From a virus, in the UHGV virus genome UHGV-0076060: DNA of 39,918 bases. The stretch is one strand, 5' to 3'. The notes below the pieces were generated by a model that saw only the letters and a program-made list of their open reading frames with translations, did no database searches and was not told the DNA's origin. This document shows positions 6,650 to 39,225 of this stretch, one piece after another. How positions within the stretch are numbered: position 1 is the stretch's first letter; each line of letters starts with the position of its first letter. Both the position numbers and the translations under genes were made by a program.

Positions 6650-6753
6650 GTTAAATCTCCAGATAGTCGCAGCACCCGTTGCGCCGCATATCTGGTTATT
6701 CTATTACCCAAAAAACCATATATGGATAGAAAGGCTGTGAATATGAATAGATA

Positions 6754-6805: not shown

Positions 6806-6825
6806 TACTGTATAAATATACAGTT
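6806..6825 (+). promoter_or_regulatory. LexA (SOS) box overlapping promoter of downstream small gene
   Basis: TACTGTATAAATATACAGTT fits the CTGT-N8-ACAG consensus with AT-rich spacer; overlaps a TATAAAT -10-like element 20-40 bp upstream of the ORF. Confidence 0.7.
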
Positions 6826-6845
6826 ATTGCATGGAGAAGATTAAG

Positions 6846-7103
6846 ATGCAGCAGTATCACTATCCACTGGAAGACGGATTTACCGAAAGGATTCACACGC
6901 CGGGAGGCGTCAGGTCACTGGTGGAGGGATCGCACTTGATGAAATTACTCCGGGATCTCGATAAGGATGGATTTAATGTCGATGGCCCACTTGCTGAACT
7001 GACTGCACTGATTAACTACGTCACCAGCTCACAGATGTCTATGCGGGATCTGCAAACACATCTCGACTATTGTGCCGAACAATTACGAAAACAAACCACA
7101 TAA
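6846..7103 (+). CDS. small SOS-controlled protein (85 aa), putative antirepressor
   Basis: RBS GGAGAAG before ATG at 6846; about 44% identity over ~45 aa to the C-terminal domain of the Bro-N protein at 8252..8947; preceded by LexA box. Confidence 0.6.
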   Translation: MQQYHYPLEDGFTERIHTPGGVRSLVEGSHLMKLLRDLDKDGFNVDGPLAELTALINYVTSSQMSMRDLQTHLDYCAEQLRKQTT

Positions 7104-7854: not shown

Positions 7855-7874
7855 TGCTTTTCCTCACAATAACA

Positions 7875-7982: not shown

Positions 7983-8019
7983 ATTTACATCGCACTCATC
8001 TTGTGCCATAGTAATCGGG

Positions 8020-8096
8020 CACTGGCAAAATCCAGTGCCGGGATTGGCGTCCCGGATTACTAAAAGGCGCATTCACCGCGCAAGCGGTTTTTTTAT
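8020..8096 (+). ncRNA. candidate small RNA (about 75 nt) ending in an intrinsic terminator
   Basis: No plausible ORF; possible promoter (TTTACA...TAGTAAT) upstream; two internal hairpins (GGCACTGG/CCAGTGCC and CCGGGA/TCCCGG) and terminal hairpin ACCGC-gcaa-GCGGT plus T7 tract at 8075-8096. Confidence 0.3.
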
Positions 8097-8251
8097 GCGT
8101 ATAGCACGGCCACATTCGTATTATGGTGGGCTGTGTGGGGGCACCGAAAGGTGCGCCGGGTCCTTTTAGCCGGTTACGCCAACCCTGCACAGTTCACCAC
8201 CAACCGATTGGCGTCGGTAGTGGTGATTGACCAGACTAAAAGGTAACCACT

Positions 8252-8947
8252 ATGACAGCTACAAAAAGCACGTCCATTTTTTCTTTCGAATCCCAAGCCG
8301 ATATACGAGTAATCGTCATTAATGGTGAGCCATGGTTTATCGCTTCAGATGTTTGTCGGGCTATAGGCATAGCAAACCATCGAGATGCTGTTCGAAAACT
8401 TGATGATGATGAGAAGGGCGTCGCTTCAACCGACACCCCTGGCGGTGAGCAAGAATCGATCATCATCTCCGAGTCAGGCCTCTACACACTGATCCTCCGC
8501 TGCCGCGACGCAGTGACACCAGGCACTATCCCCTACCGCTTTCGTAAATGGGTTACAGGTGAGGTTCTTCCTCAGATCCGCCGCACCGGAAGTTACATTA
8601 AAAACTCGCTCCCGCAGGAAGAACGCATAAAGATGGTTGCCGACCAGGTTGCAAACGCCACAGCATCAGCAGTGATGCAGGCGATGAAGATAGAGAACAA
8701 AACCTACAGTGCCCCACTGAAGCCCGGCTACCGTAGCCTGATTCATTCGCCGTCTGGTGTTCTCGGCCTGACGGAGAACTCACTGCTGATGAATCTGCTG
8801 AACCAGTTACAGGAAGACGGGCACGATGTATCGGGAGCGGCGGCGGAGCTGACCACCATGTTCTGCTACATCGTCGGTGTGAGCAAATGCCTGCGTGATA
8901 TCCAGACCCACGCGGAGTACATCAACGACAAGGCAGGGTTCTTCTGA
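8252..8947 (+). CDS. Bro-N domain protein, antirepressor-like (231 aa)
   Basis: N-terminal Bro-N/KilA-N-like sequence (FESQADIRVIVINGEPWFIASDVCRAIG...FRKWVTGEVLPQIRRTG); C-terminal domain homologous to the 85-aa protein at 6846..7103. Confidence 0.75.
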   Translation: MTATKSTSIFSFESQADIRVIVINGEPWFIASDVCRAIGIANHRDAVRKLDDDEKGVASTDTPGGEQESIIISESGLYTLILRCRDAVTPGTIPYRFRKWVTGEVLPQIRRTGSYIKNSLPQEERIKMVADQVANATASAVMQAMKIENKTYSAPLKPGYRSLIHSPSGVLGLTENSLLMNLLNQLQEDGHDVSGAAAELTTMFCYIVGVSKCLRDIQTHAEYINDKAGFF

Positions 8948-9951: not shown

Positions 9952-9957
9952 AAACAA

Positions 9958-9973
9958 GGCCGCGAAAGCGGCC
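9958..9973. terminator. GC hairpin with GAAA loop; terminator for minus-strand gene 9983..10339
   Basis: GGCCGC-gaaa-GCGGCC; on the minus strand followed by TTGTTTTTA. Confidence 0.6.
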
Positions 9974-9974
9974 T

Positions 9975-9986
9975 GTGACATGTCAC
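9975..9986. repeat. 12-bp perfect palindrome GTGACATGTCAC (copy 1 of 3)
   Basis: Exact 12-mer also at 27581..27592 and 29846..29857; overlaps stop codon of the minus-strand gene. Confidence 0.7.
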
Positions 9987-26454: not shown

Positions 26455-26544
26455 ATCAATGACTCCGTACGCAATTAAATTATTACCAATTTAACCACAT
26501 ATGATTTATTTATCGTAGGCAGTTGACATTTAACGCATGAATTA

Positions 26545-26881: not shown

Positions 26882-26958
26882 GTGGCATTAGCTCAGTTGG
26901 ACAGAGCAACCGCCTTCTAAGCGGTTGGTCGCAGGTTCGAATCCTGCATGCCACGCCA
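26882..26958 (+). tRNA. tRNA-Arg (anticodon UCU, reads AGA)
   Basis: Manual cloverleaf: 7-bp acceptor GTGGCAT/ATGCCAC, D-stem GCTC/GAGC, anticodon stem ACCGC/GCGGT with loop CTTCTAA, T-arm GCAGG-TTCGAAT-CCTGC, discriminator G, encoded CCA. Confidence 0.85.
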
Positions 26959-27156: not shown

Positions 27157-27576
27157 ATGAAGACAATTGATATGTTGGCTAAGTATCTAAATGAATGGCC
27201 ATTAAAATATTCTCGTATCGTTCAGGCTGAAGACTGCATTTTTTATGGCGTTTTTGCTGGTAATGAAATGCATTACGAAGTAATTCAGAGTGAGGGACTG
27301 GCCGGGTTAACTCTTAGCGAAGACCATGGTACTAGCGTTACGTTCCATGACTGGATAACAGCACAACGTTATGAAATGGAAAAAGGCGATGTGTTTGATA
27401 TTTCTCGATCTGTTTACGCTAAAGCAAAAAGTGATAATGATTACATGAGCGAACACTTATACAACATGAAGTTACAATGCCTGCATGCGGCGCTTATTCA
27501 GAATGGGCACTTCGATAAAACAAGTGCCATCAATATTGCGGAAGCCATCAACGCTGGATTTAATGCCATTAAGTAA
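27157..27576 (+). CDS. moron protein of unknown function (139 aa), AT-rich, antisense to the late operon
   Basis: Good RBS, low GC relative to neighbours, own terminators; no recognisable motifs. Confidence 0.6.
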   Translation: MKTIDMLAKYLNEWPLKYSRIVQAEDCIFYGVFAGNEMHYEVIQSEGLAGLTLSEDHGTSVTFHDWITAQRYEMEKGDVFDISRSVYAKAKSDNDYMSEHLYNMKLQCLHAALIQNGHFDKTSAINIAEAINAGFNAIK

Positions 27577-27580
27577 CACC

Positions 27581-27592
27581 GTGACATGTCAC
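27581..27592. repeat. 12-bp perfect palindrome GTGACATGTCAC (copy 2 of 3)
   Basis: Exact copy; 5 nt after the moron stop codon. Confidence 0.7.
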
Positions 27593-27666: not shown

Positions 27667-29142
27667 TTAAGCATAGGGATCGTAATCTGTGATGGCCTTG
27701 CCTTGCTGGTTCTGCTGCCCGGGAATTCGCAGACGCTTCGACACAGGGAACGCAAACGTCAGCAGTAGCGCATCGCCTTTACCCGGCGAACGCCCAAGCC
27801 GCTCCTTGATATCTTCCTTCGGTTCGATAACGATTTTACCGTCCACGCGAACTTTGTACTCTGCCGCCGACAGGTCGTCTGCTGTTTCCTGGTCATCCAG
27901 CATGCCGCCCAGCCTCAGCCATGTCTTGCATGAATTGAACATCTCCCCACGCTTGTTAAGCATCTGCGGGTCAGTTGACGCACCACCGAACGGAACAAGT
28001 TGCCATGTACGTCCCCAGCCATCACCGATTGACTTCAGACCGGTTCCGTAACCGAAGTCGATGAACACCGCGTCAGCCTGATACTGGTCTTCAAAGTCAG
28101 CGATACGCTTCGCCATAATCAGATCGTCAGTGGTCTTGTTGCCAGTCCATAGCACCTTACTATGCAACCCCTGCCGCAGGTATATCACCGCGTCATCAAC
28201 GCCTGAATATGCCGGGTCAACACCGATTATCACCGGAGCATGTGCCACCTGCGCAGCGGTTACCACCCGTTTCATTGCCTCATCAGTAAGACCGGTAGGG
28301 ATAAACTGCAATTCAGATGCATCAGGGAATATGCCGCGCACACGGATTTTAACGAAGTCGCTATCTTCCCCGTAGTCATCAACCCATTTCTGCAACTGCT
28401 GTTTGTTAGTGCCTTCCACCGTCCGGCTGTCAATCTGCGCAGTTTTCCAGCGGTGTTTATATTTGCGGAAACATTCGCGGAAACGCCCGGTGTTACGAGT
28501 AGGGTTTCCGAACGCCACCCAGATAATCTCAGTGTCTTCGTCCGTAAGCGCACCCTCAGCAACTTCCCACACCAGATCCGCAATGTTCGACGCTTCATCG
28601 AATACCACGACGATGCGTTTGCGCTCGTTGTGTAGTCCGGCGAATGCCTCAGTGTTGTGCTCAGACCAGGGGATTGCGTCAGCTCGCCACCGCTTGTCGT
28701 GCCCAGGATCATTGCTGTACATCGCGGTAGCGGTACAGGTAAACCAGTCTTTCGTGATAGCAAGGTTCGACCACTTGATAATTTCCGGCCAGGTCTTCGT
28801 TCGTAGCTGGTTGTCGGTGTTGGCGGTCACCACGACCTTACAATCCTCGCAAGTGGACATGCCCCAGTTGATCAGCATTGAGATGAATGCGGATTTACCA
28901 ATACCGTGACCCGAAGCACGTGCCAGCATAAGCGGCTGATAGCGCGTCTCTGGATTCTGCAGGTGATCACGTATCTCTCGGAACGCATCAGCCTGCCACT
29001 TACGTGGGCCGGTAGCATGTGCCAGTTCAGTCCCCTCTTCCCCCCACGGGAACGCATAGAGGGCATAGCCAAGCGGATCGTGAGTGAACCCTGCAATATC
29101 CTCGATCAACTGCTCTTCAGGAGATAACGCTGTATCTGTCAC
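27667..29142 (-). CDS. terminase large subunit (491 aa)
   Basis: Walker A-like motif (ARASGHGIGKS), size, and position after the small subunit gene with overlapping start/stop. Confidence 0.8.
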   Translation of the reverse strand: MTDTALSPEEQLIEDIAGFTHDPLGYALYAFPWGEEGTELAHATGPRKWQADAFREIRDHLQNPETRYQPLMLARASGHGIGKSAFISMLINWGMSTCEDCKVVVTANTDNQLRTKTWPEIIKWSNLAITKDWFTCTATAMYSNDPGHDKRWRADAIPWSEHNTEAFAGLHNERKRIVVVFDEASNIADLVWEVAEGALTDEDTEIIWVAFGNPTRNTGRFRECFRKYKHRWKTAQIDSRTVEGTNKQQLQKWVDDYGEDSDFVKIRVRGIFPDASELQFIPTGLTDEAMKRVVTAAQVAHAPVIIGVDPAYSGVDDAVIYLRQGLHSKVLWTGNKTTDDLIMAKRIADFEDQYQADAVFIDFGYGTGLKSIGDGWGRTWQLVPFGGASTDPQMLNKRGEMFNSCKTWLRLGGMLDDQETADDLSAAEYKVRVDGKIVIEPKEDIKERLGRSPGKGDALLLTFAFPVSKRLRIPGQQNQQGKAITDYDPYA

Positions 29143-29813
29143 TGATTACCATCCTGACGTTCTTTGAGTCGCTTCCTGGCTGCTGCTATGCGATCAGCAA
29201 TTGTCACATTCACATTAACATCCAGACGTTCTTTGAACGCGTTGACATCAACATGCTTACCAATCAGCTCAAGGTTCTTCACCTTGTCAGGCCATTTAAT
29301 TTTTTTGAGGATTGTCTCTATCGAATCCTCGTTCATGTTCATGATGGTCGATGACAGATCAAAGCCACTAAGCGTAGTGCGCCAGATTTTCGGCCACTCA
29401 CGGATTGGTTTAAGGCTCCCATCGTCGTTGAGGATGTCGATCACGTCCATCTGGTCGATCTCCACCAGGCGCATGAGAACGTAATCAGCACTGACGCGCA
29501 TTCGTTTGTTGCGCTCCTCCATCAACTCGGCAATCCGTTTTTGAATGCGTTCATCGCGCATCATGACGCTGGCTTTAACTGCCGCTGTATTTGGGGAGAA
29601 TCCTGCGTTAATCGCTGCCTGAGTCTGGTTTTCAGGCGTTTTGATGTATGACTGGCAATAAGCCTCCTGCATTGCTGTTAGTGGCTTAAATTGCGTTGAT
29701 TTGCGTTTATAGGTTTTAGGTTCAGCAGGCATCATAACCACCGTGGTAATAGTTACCGTTGTGGTAATAGTACCATGCAAAATAAAGCCGCCATAGTTGG
29801 CGGCAGTATCCAA
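29139..29813 (-). CDS. terminase small subunit (about 200-224 aa)
   Basis: Position upstream of large terminase, basic N-terminal region; the ORF's first in-frame codon is TTG, true start possibly the internal MMPAEP. Confidence 0.6.
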   Translation of the reverse strand: MDTAANYGGFILHGTITTTVTITTVVMMPAEPKTYKRKSTQFKPLTAMQEAYCQSYIKTPENQTQAAINAGFSPNTAAVKASVMMRDERIQKRIAELMEERNKRMRVSADYVLMRLVEIDQMDVIDILNDDGSLKPIREWPKIWRTTLSGFDLSSTIMNMNEDSIETILKKIKWPDKVKNLELIGKHVDVNAFKERLDVNVNVTIADRIAAARKRLKERQDGNQ

Positions 29814-29845
29814 AACCCGTCAAATTCATCATGCATAATCTACTC

Positions 29846-29857
29846 GTGACATGTCAC
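29846..29857. repeat. 12-bp perfect palindrome GTGACATGTCAC (copy 3 of 3)
   Basis: Exact copy overlapping the stop codon of 29854..30195, just upstream of the terminase genes. Confidence 0.7.
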
Positions 29858-30195
29858 ACTATTAATTTCGTTTCATGCCAGCCTTTAGTCACCCAGCATT
29901 GCGAGTCACCATTACACGGGCATGAATTAACGGGAACTCTCTCGCCGCACTTACCGCAAAGTTTTCTGCTGATCGATTTTATACGCCCGCGCACACGTGC
30001 ATCATCCTGGCGGATCAGCAGCGCTATATACTCACCAAATTCGTAAGGCGCACGCCCGGGGCGACGCGTGGCACAGTTACGCTCCAGCATTTCAATTTCC
30101 TGAGCATCAAGCACAATCTCCAGCTTACGCACACCAGATGCAGCTTGTCTGGCTCTCTGAGCGGCTTTGCGCTCTGCTGCTGATTTAGCCATCAA
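29854..30195 (-). CDS. hypothetical protein with Cys-rich C-terminus (113 aa), candidate regulator
   Basis: Basic/Ala-rich N-terminus, C-terminal CGKCGERVPVNSCPCNGDSQC cluster; immediately upstream of the terminase operon. Confidence 0.5.
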   Translation of the reverse strand: MMAKSAAERKAAQRARQAASGVRKLEIVLDAQEIEMLERNCATRRPGRAPYEFGEYIALLIRQDDARVRGRIKSISRKLCGKCGERVPVNSCPCNGDSQCWVTKGWHETKLIV

Positions 30196-33226: not shown

Positions 33227-33263
33227 TTATCAAGACGTAAAAAAATGCGCTATCGCGCTGGTA

Positions 33264-34040: not shown

Positions 34041-34842
34041 CCCACACCCCTTCTATCCAGTCAGTGTTATTCCAGTCAAGCTCATCGCTTTTCCCGGCGT
34101 TTTTTGATTTTCCCCTGATATGATTTACGTGCCTGGCGAATTTTTGTTCCCACTGAACCTGCGTGAACACTTTGCCCTCAGCCATCCAGTAATCCCGGAA
34201 TGCAGCAAGTTCAGCAGGTGTAAATTCCGGTTCCGGCAGGGCCGTTCCCCACAGCGCAGCACGCCGTCGAAAATCCGGCGATGGATGCCAGCCATCGGTC
34301 ATCGGAAATTTCCCAATAGGTTCACTCAGGCCATCCAGAAATGCAGGTTCTGCCACCTGCAACGGCGTACCGTTCGCTTCACTGGTCGGATCACTCTCGC
34401 GCGCGTGTGCTATGTGTGGGGTTTTATATATATCTTCCTCTTCCTCTTCCTCTGGTAACTCCTTTTGTAACGCTGTTGGCGTTACTTTTTGCGTTACTCG
34501 TTTTCGATGCTCTGCCACTCTTCTATTCGTAAGTGCACGTTTTTTCGATGATTCTCCATTATGTCGCTCAAAGTTTGGAAGAATTAGTTTGCCGTCATGA
34601 TAAGCAAGCCATCCGACGCTAATGAGGGCGTCAGCAAATCCTGTAATAAAAGCGAGTCTATCAAGTACTCCTTTTGTAACGCTGCCAGCGTTACCGTCTA
34701 TTGTTTGCTGGTCAGCCCATGCCCATATACGAACCAGCTTTCCAAGAACAGCATCTGGATCAATACCCAGAATTTCTGCTATCTGAAAAATTTCAGGTTT
34801 ATCAGGAGTGATAACTTCAACCTTAATCCAGCTGCTTGCCAT
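34012..34842 (-). CDS. replication initiation/replisome organizer protein with DnaT-like C-terminal domain (about 276 aa)
   Basis: Start at MASSWIKV with GAGGGG RBS; C-terminus ([32 protein letters not shown]) resembles the DnaT C-terminal region; acidic linker. Confidence 0.6.
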
Positions 34843-35017
34843 AGGTTTCCCCTCTTGCACTCTTTAGTGCACAAGCAAATTCATTACGATGGCGGTTGGC
34901 GCTATTCATTGCACATTCAACACATGTTCCGTTCAGAACATACCTTTCAGAGAGATGGCCGTGACGGCACCGCTTTCCTGTGAAATAGCGATTTAACCCG
35001 GCTTTTGCGGCCTCCAT
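34823..35017 (-). CDS. small zinc-finger-like protein (64 aa) in cII-equivalent position
   Basis: ATG start (MEAAKAGL...), motif CRHGH...CVEC; between Cro-like gene and replication genes; weak RBS. Confidence 0.4.
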
Positions 35018-35114
35018 TCTGGTTACTATCTTCAATTTTTCCGCCCCCTTTTTGTTATTGATATTGGCTATTTTGCACAATTGGAAAATTTGATCAACCA
35101 GATTTGGTTTTTTA

Positions 35115-35136: not shown

Positions 35137-35162
35137 TATGAAAAGACCGCCGGATGGCGGTC
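35137..35162 (-). terminator. intrinsic terminator after the Cro-like gene (tR1-like)
   Basis: GACCGCC-ggat-GGCGGTC followed on the minus strand by TTTTCAT. Confidence 0.6.
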
Positions 35163-35569: not shown

Positions 35570-36154
35570 ATGAAAAGTATCCAGGACGTCCGCAGGCAAA
35601 ATCTCAACGACTTGATCGACCGTGAATTCAATGGTGTTCAGACGCGGATGGCAGAAAAACTTGGAACTCAGGCAAATCTGGTAAACCGCTGGGCTCTTGG
35701 CAAGAAGGTTATCGGCGACCAGGTTGCGCGAAAAATTGAAGCTGCCGCCAATAAACCCCGTAACTGGCTTGATATCGATCGCTCGCTTTCTCAGGAAGGT
35801 TTTCAGCCTGTCGGCCCAAGCGACATTGGTCAGCTGGCGGCTCACAACCTGGAACGCTGGATGAGCGAAAGCCGCGACCTTTCAACACAGGGAAAACTTC
35901 ACCGCGCATCCGGCGTCGCCCAGGTGACAATCAGCCGCCTGTTAAACAATGAGGTCAGCGTTTCCATTTCCACCCTGGAGAATGTTGCATCCGCATTCGG
36001 GCGTCACGGCTATGAATTACTGATTCACCCGCACGACCCTGCGACCATCAACTATGACCGCTCGCGCTACGCATTGTTACCCGAAACCGAGAAAGCAAAG
36101 ATCGAAAGTTACATTGAATTTGTCATCAACCAGAACGAAAAAAACAAACAATAA
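35570..36154 (+). CDS. cI-like repressor candidate with two HTH motifs and no recognisable autocleavage domain (194 aa)
   Basis: HTH-like segments (QTRMAEKLGTQANLVNRW; LHRASGVAQVTISRLL); monocistronic with own terminator; no Ala-Gly / Ser-Lys S24-type motifs seen by eye. Confidence 0.55.
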   Translation: MKSIQDVRRQNLNDLIDREFNGVQTRMAEKLGTQANLVNRWALGKKVIGDQVARKIEAAANKPRNWLDIDRSLSQEGFQPVGPSDIGQLAAHNLERWMSESRDLSTQGKLHRASGVAQVTISRLLNNEVSVSISTLENVASAFGRHGYELLIHPHDPATINYDRSRYALLPETEKAKIESYIEFVINQNEKNKQ

Positions 36155-38567: not shown

Positions 38568-38816
38568 ATGAAAGGTGCATTAGGTAAGAAGGAACTCCTG
38601 GCGGTGGTGCCACTGTCATGGAGCACTATCGACCGCATGGAGCGCGCAGGGGAATTTCCTAAACGCTGGTATATCACTGACAAACGCTGCGCATGGAACC
38701 GTGACGAAGTTGAGCGTTGGCTTGATGAACGTCAGGCAGCAAGCCCGGCAGAGTTCCAGGGTAAAAAGCCTCCTGTTCAGCAACGTGTATATCGTCCTGT
38801 GAGCAACGCTGCATGA
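38568..38816 (+). CDS. AlpA/Xis-like excisionase-type HTH protein (82 aa)
   Basis: LSWSTIDRMERAGEFPKRWYITDKRCAWNRDEVERWLDER matches the AlpA-family pattern. Confidence 0.65.
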   Translation: MKGALGKKELLAVVPLSWSTIDRMERAGEFPKRWYITDKRCAWNRDEVERWLDERQAASPAEFQGKKPPVQQRVYRPVSNAA

Positions 38817-38925: not shown

Positions 38926-39225
38926 GTGAGAAAGTTAAGCCGACTTGAAAAATATCACATGAACAAGGTTTCAATGCGCAGCCCTTCAAAGGTTGTTGCC
39001 GTTACTCCTGCGGCGATAGAGATCGAAAAACGCGCGATTGAAAGAGAGAAAAAAGGGCAGTTCCGCATTGCCGCCCACCTTTGGCTTCAGTGTATGGATG
39101 TTGCTTCTGGTGATGTTGAGCGTGCAAGGATCGCGGTTCGCAGGGACCAATGTATCACAAAAGGTAACGGCCTTCGCCGTGGCGACTATAGCGGCATAGG
39201 ATGTTGTGGGGTGGTTTATGACTAA
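38926..39225 (+). CDS. hypothetical protein (99 aa)
   Basis: GTG start with GAGG upstream; alternative ATG at 38959. Confidence 0.4.
   Translation: MRKLSRLEKYHMNKVSMRSPSKVVAVTPAAIEIEKRAIEREKKGQFRIAAHLWLQCMDVASGDVERARIAVRRDQCITKGNGLRRGDYSGIGCCGVVYD

Follow-up and report, generated by a model that had tools for sequence, protein, structure and literature searches.

How does a temperate phage that lacks a recognisable Q-type antiterminator move from its early to its late genes? The question is raised by UHGV virus genome UHGV-0076060, whose 39,918 nucleotides (the whole stretch analysed here, hereafter the window) make up a near-complete prophage of the epsilon15/phiV10 group, genus Uetakevirus, with long stretches 96-98% identical to phiV10, TL-2011b, ZX5 and others. 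Epsilon15/phiV10-like phages serve as reporter phages for E. coli O157 and Salmonella and are common as prophages. An initial sequence-only reading recognised no Q and put forward two small proteins as late regulators, a Cys-rich one encoded directly upstream of the terminase genes and a zinc-finger-like one at 34823..35017, either of which might act through ATTACC-N5-GGTAA sites in front of the head and tailspike genes. The first observation was upheld: among the 29 window proteins scanned there were zero matches to Q-type Pfam families, and tblastn searches of the window with the Q proteins of N15 and of a Salmonella prophage returned only noise.

The late genes of the prophage lie on the minus strand. 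From the immunity region the order runs through the repressor gene (35570..36154, +), cro, a zinc-finger gene (ZnF), O-like and P-like genes, a DUF1064 gene, variable genes and an ASCH gene to the gene under study, and continues with terS, terL, a moron with a tRNA-Arg gene, the portal and structural genes, the antirepressor region, the tailspike gene and the lysis genes (Table 1). The tRNA-Arg(tct) gene (26882-26958, +) and the moron (27157..27576, +; low similarity) occupy the opposite strand between terL and the portal operon, and the phiV10 gene at the position equivalent to the moron has been reported as a distant neaT homologue. In the antirepressor region, Rfam matches at the gathering score to isrK (8019-8094) and C4 antisense RNA (8119-8204), both on the plus strand within 8019-8204, lie just 5' of a Bro-N antirepressor gene (8252..8947, +), an anti-immunity module of the P1/N15/Gifsy type whose promoter region has operator-like sites at 7874 and 7967 on its flanks. 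A perfect LexA-box-like sequence, TACTGTATAAATATACAGT (6806-6824, +), stands 5' of a 90-aa gene (6831..7103, +) transcribed divergently from the tailspike promoter region; this gene is probably of the antirepressor type and under SOS control. Membership of a defence system was rejected, PADLOC giving zero matches.

Table 1. Positions of the features discussed, numbered along the window
Feature	Position	Strand	Description
gp55 homologue (gene under study)	29854..30192	-	homologue of phiV10 gp55 / epsilon15 gp49; 112 aa; N-terminal basic helix, ribbon-helix-helix, C-terminal Cys4 zinc module
PAL1	29846..29857	.	12-bp perfect palindrome GTGACATGTCAC; contains the TGA stop (29854-29856) of the gp55 homologue
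PAL2	27581..27592	.	exact copy; terL stop on one side, convergent moron on the other; hairpin 5 nt away
PAL3	9957..9986 (palindrome 9975-9986)	-	includes the TGA that ends the last structural-operon gene; terminator hairpin 9957-9974 directly after
T1	29778..29806	-	intrinsic-terminator-like hairpin GCCGCC-AACTAT-GGCGGC (29806-29787) with tail TTTATTTTG
Two adjacent ATTACC-N5-GGTAA-type sites	29734..29768	.	between T1 and the terS start codon
ATTACC-N5-GGTAAT sites	6753, 7874, 7967, 9012, 26544, 29734, 29752, 33149, 33211, 35114, 35499, 36211, 36273		
terS (small terminase)	29139..29735	-	probable start ATG 29735; Terminase_2 match, E 1e-29
terL	27667..29142	-	next after terS
Late-promoter-like block CATATGTGGTTAAATTGGTAATA	26481..26503	-	5' of the portal/head operon
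Late-promoter-like block CATATATGGTTTTTTGGGTAATA	6702..6724	-	5' of the tailspike/lysis operon
ZnF protein	34823..35035	-	Cys/His zinc-finger gene after cro; ligands C17, H21, C32, C35 (64-aa numbering)
AlpA-family candidate	38568..38816	+	family match; phiV10 annotation; leftward early operon
PerC-like candidate	38926..39225	+	family match; phiV10 annotation; leftward early operon

The gene upstream of terS was called as a 113-aa reading frame with a TTG start (29854..30195, -), but homologues begin MAKS or MPKS, which makes the ATG at 30192 the likely start. Its product, which we call the gp55 homologue after its phiV10 counterpart, has a pI of 9.6, 22 lysines and arginines and six cysteines, five of these at residues 79-99. 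The small basic protein with a Cys-rich C-terminus noticed directly 5' of the terminase genes is real. The gene holds its place next to terS in all epsilon15/phiV10-like genomes examined, with mosaic neighbours upstream. A profile match to PHROG 536 (E 3.8e-54, residues 1-111) carries the name 'transcriptional regulator', which is annotation only, and sequence searches of Pfam, NCBIfam and the PDB gave no match. The family itself is large, comprising 726 clusters at 90% identity and 152 representatives at 50% identity (E<=0.001), chiefly from Enterobacterales and Vibrio prophages and nearly all labelled hypothetical; a scan of viral contigs with the window's protein returned only copies 97-99% identical to it. 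A BFVD fold search yielded nothing beyond a fragment of the same family. Searches for publications on the family or on the palindrome described below found nothing, and both appear to be undescribed in the literature searched.

The AlphaFold2 model (pLDDT 89) shows the strand-helix-helix fold of the ribbon-helix-helix (RHH; MetJ/Arc/CopG) superfamily. In the family alignment the N-terminus is basic (RKxxQRxR, with R13 invariant and R8 invariant or near-invariant) and is followed by G-h-x-x-h-E-h-x-L, two helices and C-x2-C-G-x2-L-P ... C ... C, where C79, C82 and C99 are invariant and the fourth cysteine is variable. When the family profile was compared with PDB sequences, YbiI and TraR were the sole top matches (E 0.015-0.02, residues 49-112), and hhalign against F-plasmid TraR, with a TraR sequence that agrees with the stretch aligned in the PDB match, gave a probability of 51% (E 1.6e-4). 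The similarity to TraR is marginal: the first knuckle and the helix align, and the second CxxC is absent. Membership of the DksA/TraR C4 zinc fingers was judged by the pattern CxxC-x17-CxxC after a long helix, and the corresponding Pfam family matched none of 57 family members. Taken together, the fold and the profile and hhalign matches suggest a DNA-binding RHH head joined to a zinc finger with a possible relationship to the TraR/DksA type. The protein is probably both DNA-binding and zinc-binding and, being also small and basic, is a legitimate candidate for a regulator. It did not fall into the Q or Ogr/Delta families: the window's protein matched no Q family of Pfam at E<=0.1, nor did any of the 57 family members at E<=1, and the protein, its family and the ZnF protein all lacked an Ogr_Delta match.

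What might such a protein bind? The sequence-only reading had pointed to a palindrome over the stop codon of the gene. The window contains three exact copies of GTGAC-NN-GTCAC, against 0.01 expected from shuffles, and all three lie at the 3' ends of operons (early-right, terminase and structural), PAL2 and PAL3 at junctions with convergent genes. The palindrome is distinct from ATTACC-N5-GGTAA, the nearest examples of which lie at 29752-29768 and 29734-29750 by the terS start codon. Across five phage genomes the spacer is always 2 and never 3, and the stop-codon register xxG TGA Cnn GTC AC is common to N15 gene 46, a P2-like Yersinia phage and further loci. Among 21 species-representative genome loci, 10 have the stop inside the palindrome in this same register, 3 more have the palindrome 5-7 nt past a different stop codon, and one frameshifted copy keeps it at the ancestral stop; the stop likewise lies inside the palindrome, in that register, in 49/49 N15-type loci and in 75/80 phiV10-type viral contigs. 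Of nine relatives at 28-35% identity, five have it at the stop, one within the gene and three not at all. All four Uetakevirus genomes, from four host genera, carry it both at the gene's stop and after the last structural gene, and three of the four also near the end of terL, the Klebsiella phage BUCT711 being the one without. In Providencia and Rouxiella prophages the family gene has no palindrome, and two copies occur elsewhere in the early arms.

Similarity between loci stops right after the palindrome, and within it the central dinucleotide varies (AT, TG, GC, AC, AG, CT) while the outer pentamers are invariant. That non-coding and wobble positions are kept across such wide protein divergence argues for a functional link between gene and palindrome. 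The palindrome is most likely the binding site of the gp55 homologue, a putative operator, and it is this linkage that leads us to suppose that an RHH dimer would place its two-stranded sheet in the major groove of a specific site. N15 (L041) has three palindromes, at 28550, 33237 and 39269, with a TG/CA centre: one at the stop of gene 46, one inside repA, and one 24 nt 5' of a promoter-like TTGACG-17-TAGAGT before antirepressor genes 32-30. LexA-box promoters directly follow the palindrome in Klebsiella phage BUCT711, in Citrobacter and Pseudocitrobacter prophages and in the Yersinia P2-like phage, and in three distant Vibrio and metagenomic relatives (L032, L039, L006) a co-oriented tyrosine-recombinase gene lies within the early operon, at most 2 kb 5' of the family gene.

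The half-sites of the palindrome equal those of matS, GTGAC[AG]N[TC]GTCAC, a resemblance only, and raise the idea of a MatP-like architectural or bridging protein that would pair palindromes for looping, replication, packaging or segregation and not for transcription. We regard this as very unlikely. The phage palindrome measures 12 bp with its unvarying spacer of 2, unlike the 13 bp of matS; the gp55 homologue has no predicted four-helix bundle or coiled-coil tail and carries a zinc module instead; and no partner genes are conserved. Homology to MatP was rejected, hhalign against the E. coli protein giving a non-significant probability of 0.7%, and a search for MatP homologues gave only E. 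coli copies. The two motifs are one base of spacing apart, and a study of 500 E. coli and Salmonella prophages reported matS in none of them (PMC3603311).

A second alternative would have the palindrome act in RNA or translation, or bind a host factor, with the protein directed at another target. A mini-ORF (29850-29828, -) opens at the palindrome's central ATG (TGAcATG), and equivalents of 3-13 codons exist in related loci, those of several enterobacterial prophages ending beside or within the downstream terminator hairpin; the layout could be a translation-coupled attenuation arrangement. Termination at TGA-C-ATG with reinitiation into a mini-ORF that ends at the hairpin, or a hairpin masking the next ribosome-binding site, are examples of what such a mechanism might involve. 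It would agree with these mini-ORFs, with the place of the palindrome in N15-type and several other loci, where it abuts or covers the start codon or Shine-Dalgarno sequence of the next gene, and with the folding of the intergenic RNA, which is better than that of shuffles (z = -2.9). Against this, copies exist inside genes and far from any start codon, the varying central dinucleotide means that the central ATG is not general, and perfect symmetry in the DNA together with unvarying outer pentamers is typical of the sites of dimeric DNA-binding proteins, all of which leaves the RNA-level account with a low probability.

Forty nucleotides past PAL1, between the gp55 homologue and terS, lies the terminator-like hairpin T1, which is kept in Salmonella and Enterobacter relatives. 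The 45 nt from T1 to the terS start codon hold two operator-like sites, one of which, at 29734, extends over the terS ribosome-binding site, and lack convincing -10/-35 elements; the late-promoter block described below is absent before terS, and a search for known RNA families in the spacer found none. Across the family, a terminator lies within 80 nt of the palindrome in 27/61 cases, against 22% of random positions, and in several unrelated enterobacterial prophages a terminator-like hairpin stands 20-23 nt past it, whereas in N15-type loci and most of the distant ones no terminator follows and the next gene's ribosome-binding site comes directly after. Family-wide coupling of palindrome and terminator was dropped as an explanation, the enrichment being only two-fold and nil in distant members. 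A weak promoter-like GTGACA-18-CATGAT overlaps PAL1, and we considered whether the palindrome could supply the -35 element of such a promoter, akin to PR'. The contexts of three lineages do look promoter-like, yet promoter-likeness in 48 palindrome contexts was no higher than in shuffle controls, and the idea was set aside for want of statistical support.

The company kept by family members constrains their role. Salmonella lambdoid prophages carry an orthologue of 80% identity in their nin region, three genes 5' of a canonical Q (PF06530); N15 carries Q (gene 40) as well as gene 46; the P2-like Yersinia phage also encodes a 72-aa regulator where P2 keeps ogr; and at another locus a PrtN-type activator lies two genes downstream of the family member. 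Since members coexist with Q, an Ogr-position gene or a PrtN-like activator, the family-wide role is not that of the late switch.

We favour, tentatively, the reading in which the gp55 homologue, as an RHH/zinc-finger protein that binds the palindrome, would regulate how polymerase passes operon junctions, proposed because the three palindromes mark the 3' boundaries of three operons. The 112-aa protein would bind GTGAC-NN-GTCAC through a dimeric RHH head that follows an arginine-rich helix, and its Cys4 module, to judge by its TraR-like character, may contact RNA polymerase. The most relevant step would be read-through of T1 from the early operon into the terminase genes, as terS and terL have no promoter-like element of their own. 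Whether passage would be helped or hindered is a finer matter: we lean slightly towards a positive, antitermination-like effect over a roadblock, though each taken singly is rather unlikely, the rest going to architectural, RNA-level and other modes. RHH proteins are mostly repressors. PAL3, moreover, speaks against antitermination, since it precedes a terminator beyond which genes converge, where insulation fits better. In its most ambitious form the antitermination idea would load the zinc-finger protein onto polymerase at the stop-codon palindrome so that the next terminator is read through, giving a Q-independent early-to-late switch in epsilon15/phiV10-like phages and an auxiliary gate in lambdoid, N15-like and P2-like phages; this we consider improbable.

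The opposite polarity gives an operon-end insulator or negative autoregulator, in which the palindrome-bound protein would block the elongating polymerase, limiting its own synthesis because transcripts stall before the stop and preventing read-through into the next operon or convergent genes, while late operons fire from their own promoters. Much in the positions of the sites is in keeping with it: 3/3 window palindromes at operon 3' ends, two of them at convergent junctions; throughout the family, a palindrome that falls within the gene for the protein itself or at its end, in one case inside the coding sequence; and the N15 copy between the end of the repA operon and the promoter-like TTGACG-17-TAGAGT 5' of the antirepressor genes. 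The RHH fold and the promoter-like blocks owned by the head and tail operons point the same way. Yet terS and terL would then need a promoter of their own in 45 nt that offer two operator-like sites and no convincing -10/-35, and lytic growth would seem ill served by a block to transcription 5' of Q in lambdoid prophages; on balance we find the insulator doubtful.

The ATTACC-N5-GGTAA sites, which the sequence-only reading placed before the head and tailspike genes, do not look specific to the late genes. The 25 strand matches (about 13 sites, against 0.4 expected in the window) mark the start of almost every transcription unit, PL and PR included. Sites 36211 and 36273 flank the TTGACA promoter that opens the leftward operon, 35499 lies between cro and the repressor gene, and 35114 follows the cro terminator before the ZnF-O-P genes; 33211 fills the spacer of TTGATA-16-TAAAAT before the operon running from DUF1064 to the gp55 homologue, with 33149 at the ribosome-binding site. 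The remaining sites precede terS, the portal operon (26544), the antirepressor module (7874, 7967), the DUF4760 gene (9012) and the tailspike gene (6753). Terminator-like hairpins lie after cro (35144-35161, -) and after the P-like gene (33230-33250, -), both with a promoter-like, operator-associated sequence beyond them, which suggests that the rightward early region is divided into units under separate repression. All Uetakevirus-like loci, from four host genera, retain the motif despite repressors only 42-73% identical; it occurs only where the repressor/cro/ZnF region of Uetakevirus is present, and none of the non-Uetakevirus loci with the gp55-family gene and the palindrome contains it. 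Because they follow the immunity region and not the gp55 homologue, the sites look like repressor operators, and the motif seems to behave as a multi-site immunity operator, neither late-specific nor the site of the gp55 homologue, in a layout reminiscent of that of P1 C1. A late activator working at these sites was rejected on their distribution and co-occurrence.

What, then, precedes the late operons? A 23-bp block, CATATnTGGTT-N5-GGTAATA, occurs twice in the window (0.09 expected), each time downstream of an operator-like site. Phages of Salmonella, Enterobacter and Klebsiella have it at both of these places, and in six further prophages it precedes the portal operon. The block includes a -10-like TAATA(A/G) and, in its -10-like part, the operator half-site GGTAAT, and has neither a -35 element nor the palindrome. 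A -10-like part without a -35 suggests an activator-dependent promoter, and as these elements carry another conserved motif, the gp55 homologue probably does not activate the head and tailspike units directly. Candidate readers of the block are the PerC-like, AlpA-like and ZnF proteins and the HTH repressor/cro pair. The ZnF protein, the second one singled out by the sequence-only reading, is likewise real and conserved, with its four Cys/His ligands invariant among homologues; its probable start, TTG 35035, has a good Shine-Dalgarno sequence before it and gives 70 aa. It had no Pfam or PDB match and 22 close homologues only, and its AlphaFold2 model is of low confidence (pLDDT 61), too poor for a fold search.

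These observations make it possible, at a probability we would place below even, that the late switch is thrown by other factors and that the gp55 homologue is an accessory early-region gene. De-repression at ATTACC-N5-GGTAAT would combine with an activator of the late blocks, whether PerC-like, AlpA-like, the ZnF protein or the pair of two HTH proteins, repressor and cro. Operator-like sites do stand before PL, PR and the early units, and also before those of terS, portal and tailspike; the late blocks are kept in four genera and six more prophages without the palindrome and hold an operator half-site in their -10-like part; and PerC and AlpA family matches are present. Overexpression of the repressor in the close relative ZX5, whose repressor is that of phiV10, reduced holin transcript levels by 99.97% (PMC9782041). 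On the other side, the late block has no assigned factor and the ZnF protein no relatives of known function. AlpA-type proteins beside P4-type integrases, moreover, are usually excisionases.

The proposal that the gp55 homologue is a late regulator thus survives in part: it is a plausible regulator, with a putative late role, in a prophage where no Q was recognised, but the sites through which it was supposed to act were the wrong ones. One wrong lead is gone with the assignment of the ATTACC-N5-GGTAA sites as likely immunity operators, and two concrete elements are gained, a protein-palindrome pair spread across podo-, sipho- and myovirus prophages and a conserved late-promoter-like block. 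The family, with hundreds of 90%-identity clusters, has no Pfam model and no solved structure. If the stop-codon palindrome is indeed its operator, it would be an unusual regulator that acts from the 3' end of its own gene.

Like lambdoid Q (Phage_antitermQ, PF06530), the gp55 homologue is encoded by the last gene before the late (terminase) genes, has its putative DNA site just 5' of an intrinsic terminator that must be passed on the way to terminase, and may contact polymerase via a zinc-containing domain. Unlike Q, it has no sequence or family match to it, is about half the size and has an RHH fold; its site has no supported promoter or pause element, and close orthologues coexist with a true Q. 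Proteins with a TraR/DksA-type C4 zinc finger bind the secondary channel of RNA polymerase. The gp55 homologue shares with TraR and DksA the long helix followed by CxxCGxxhP, but two separated cysteines replace the second CxxC knuckle and the N-terminus of the helix is tied into the RHH and not free for channel entry, while TraR has no such N-terminal DNA-binding head. Ogr and Delta of P2/P4 are, as predicted here for the gp55 homologue, small zinc-binding phage regulators; the gp55 homologue differs in its cysteine spacing and lack of a Pfam match, and one P2-like phage has both a family member and an Ogr-position regulator. The RHH repressors of the Arc/Mnt/CopG type, finally, share the fold and use short palindromic operators about one dimer site long, whereas the putative operator of the gp55 homologue lies at the 3' end of its gene in a polycistronic operon and not at a promoter, and the protein bears an extra zinc module.
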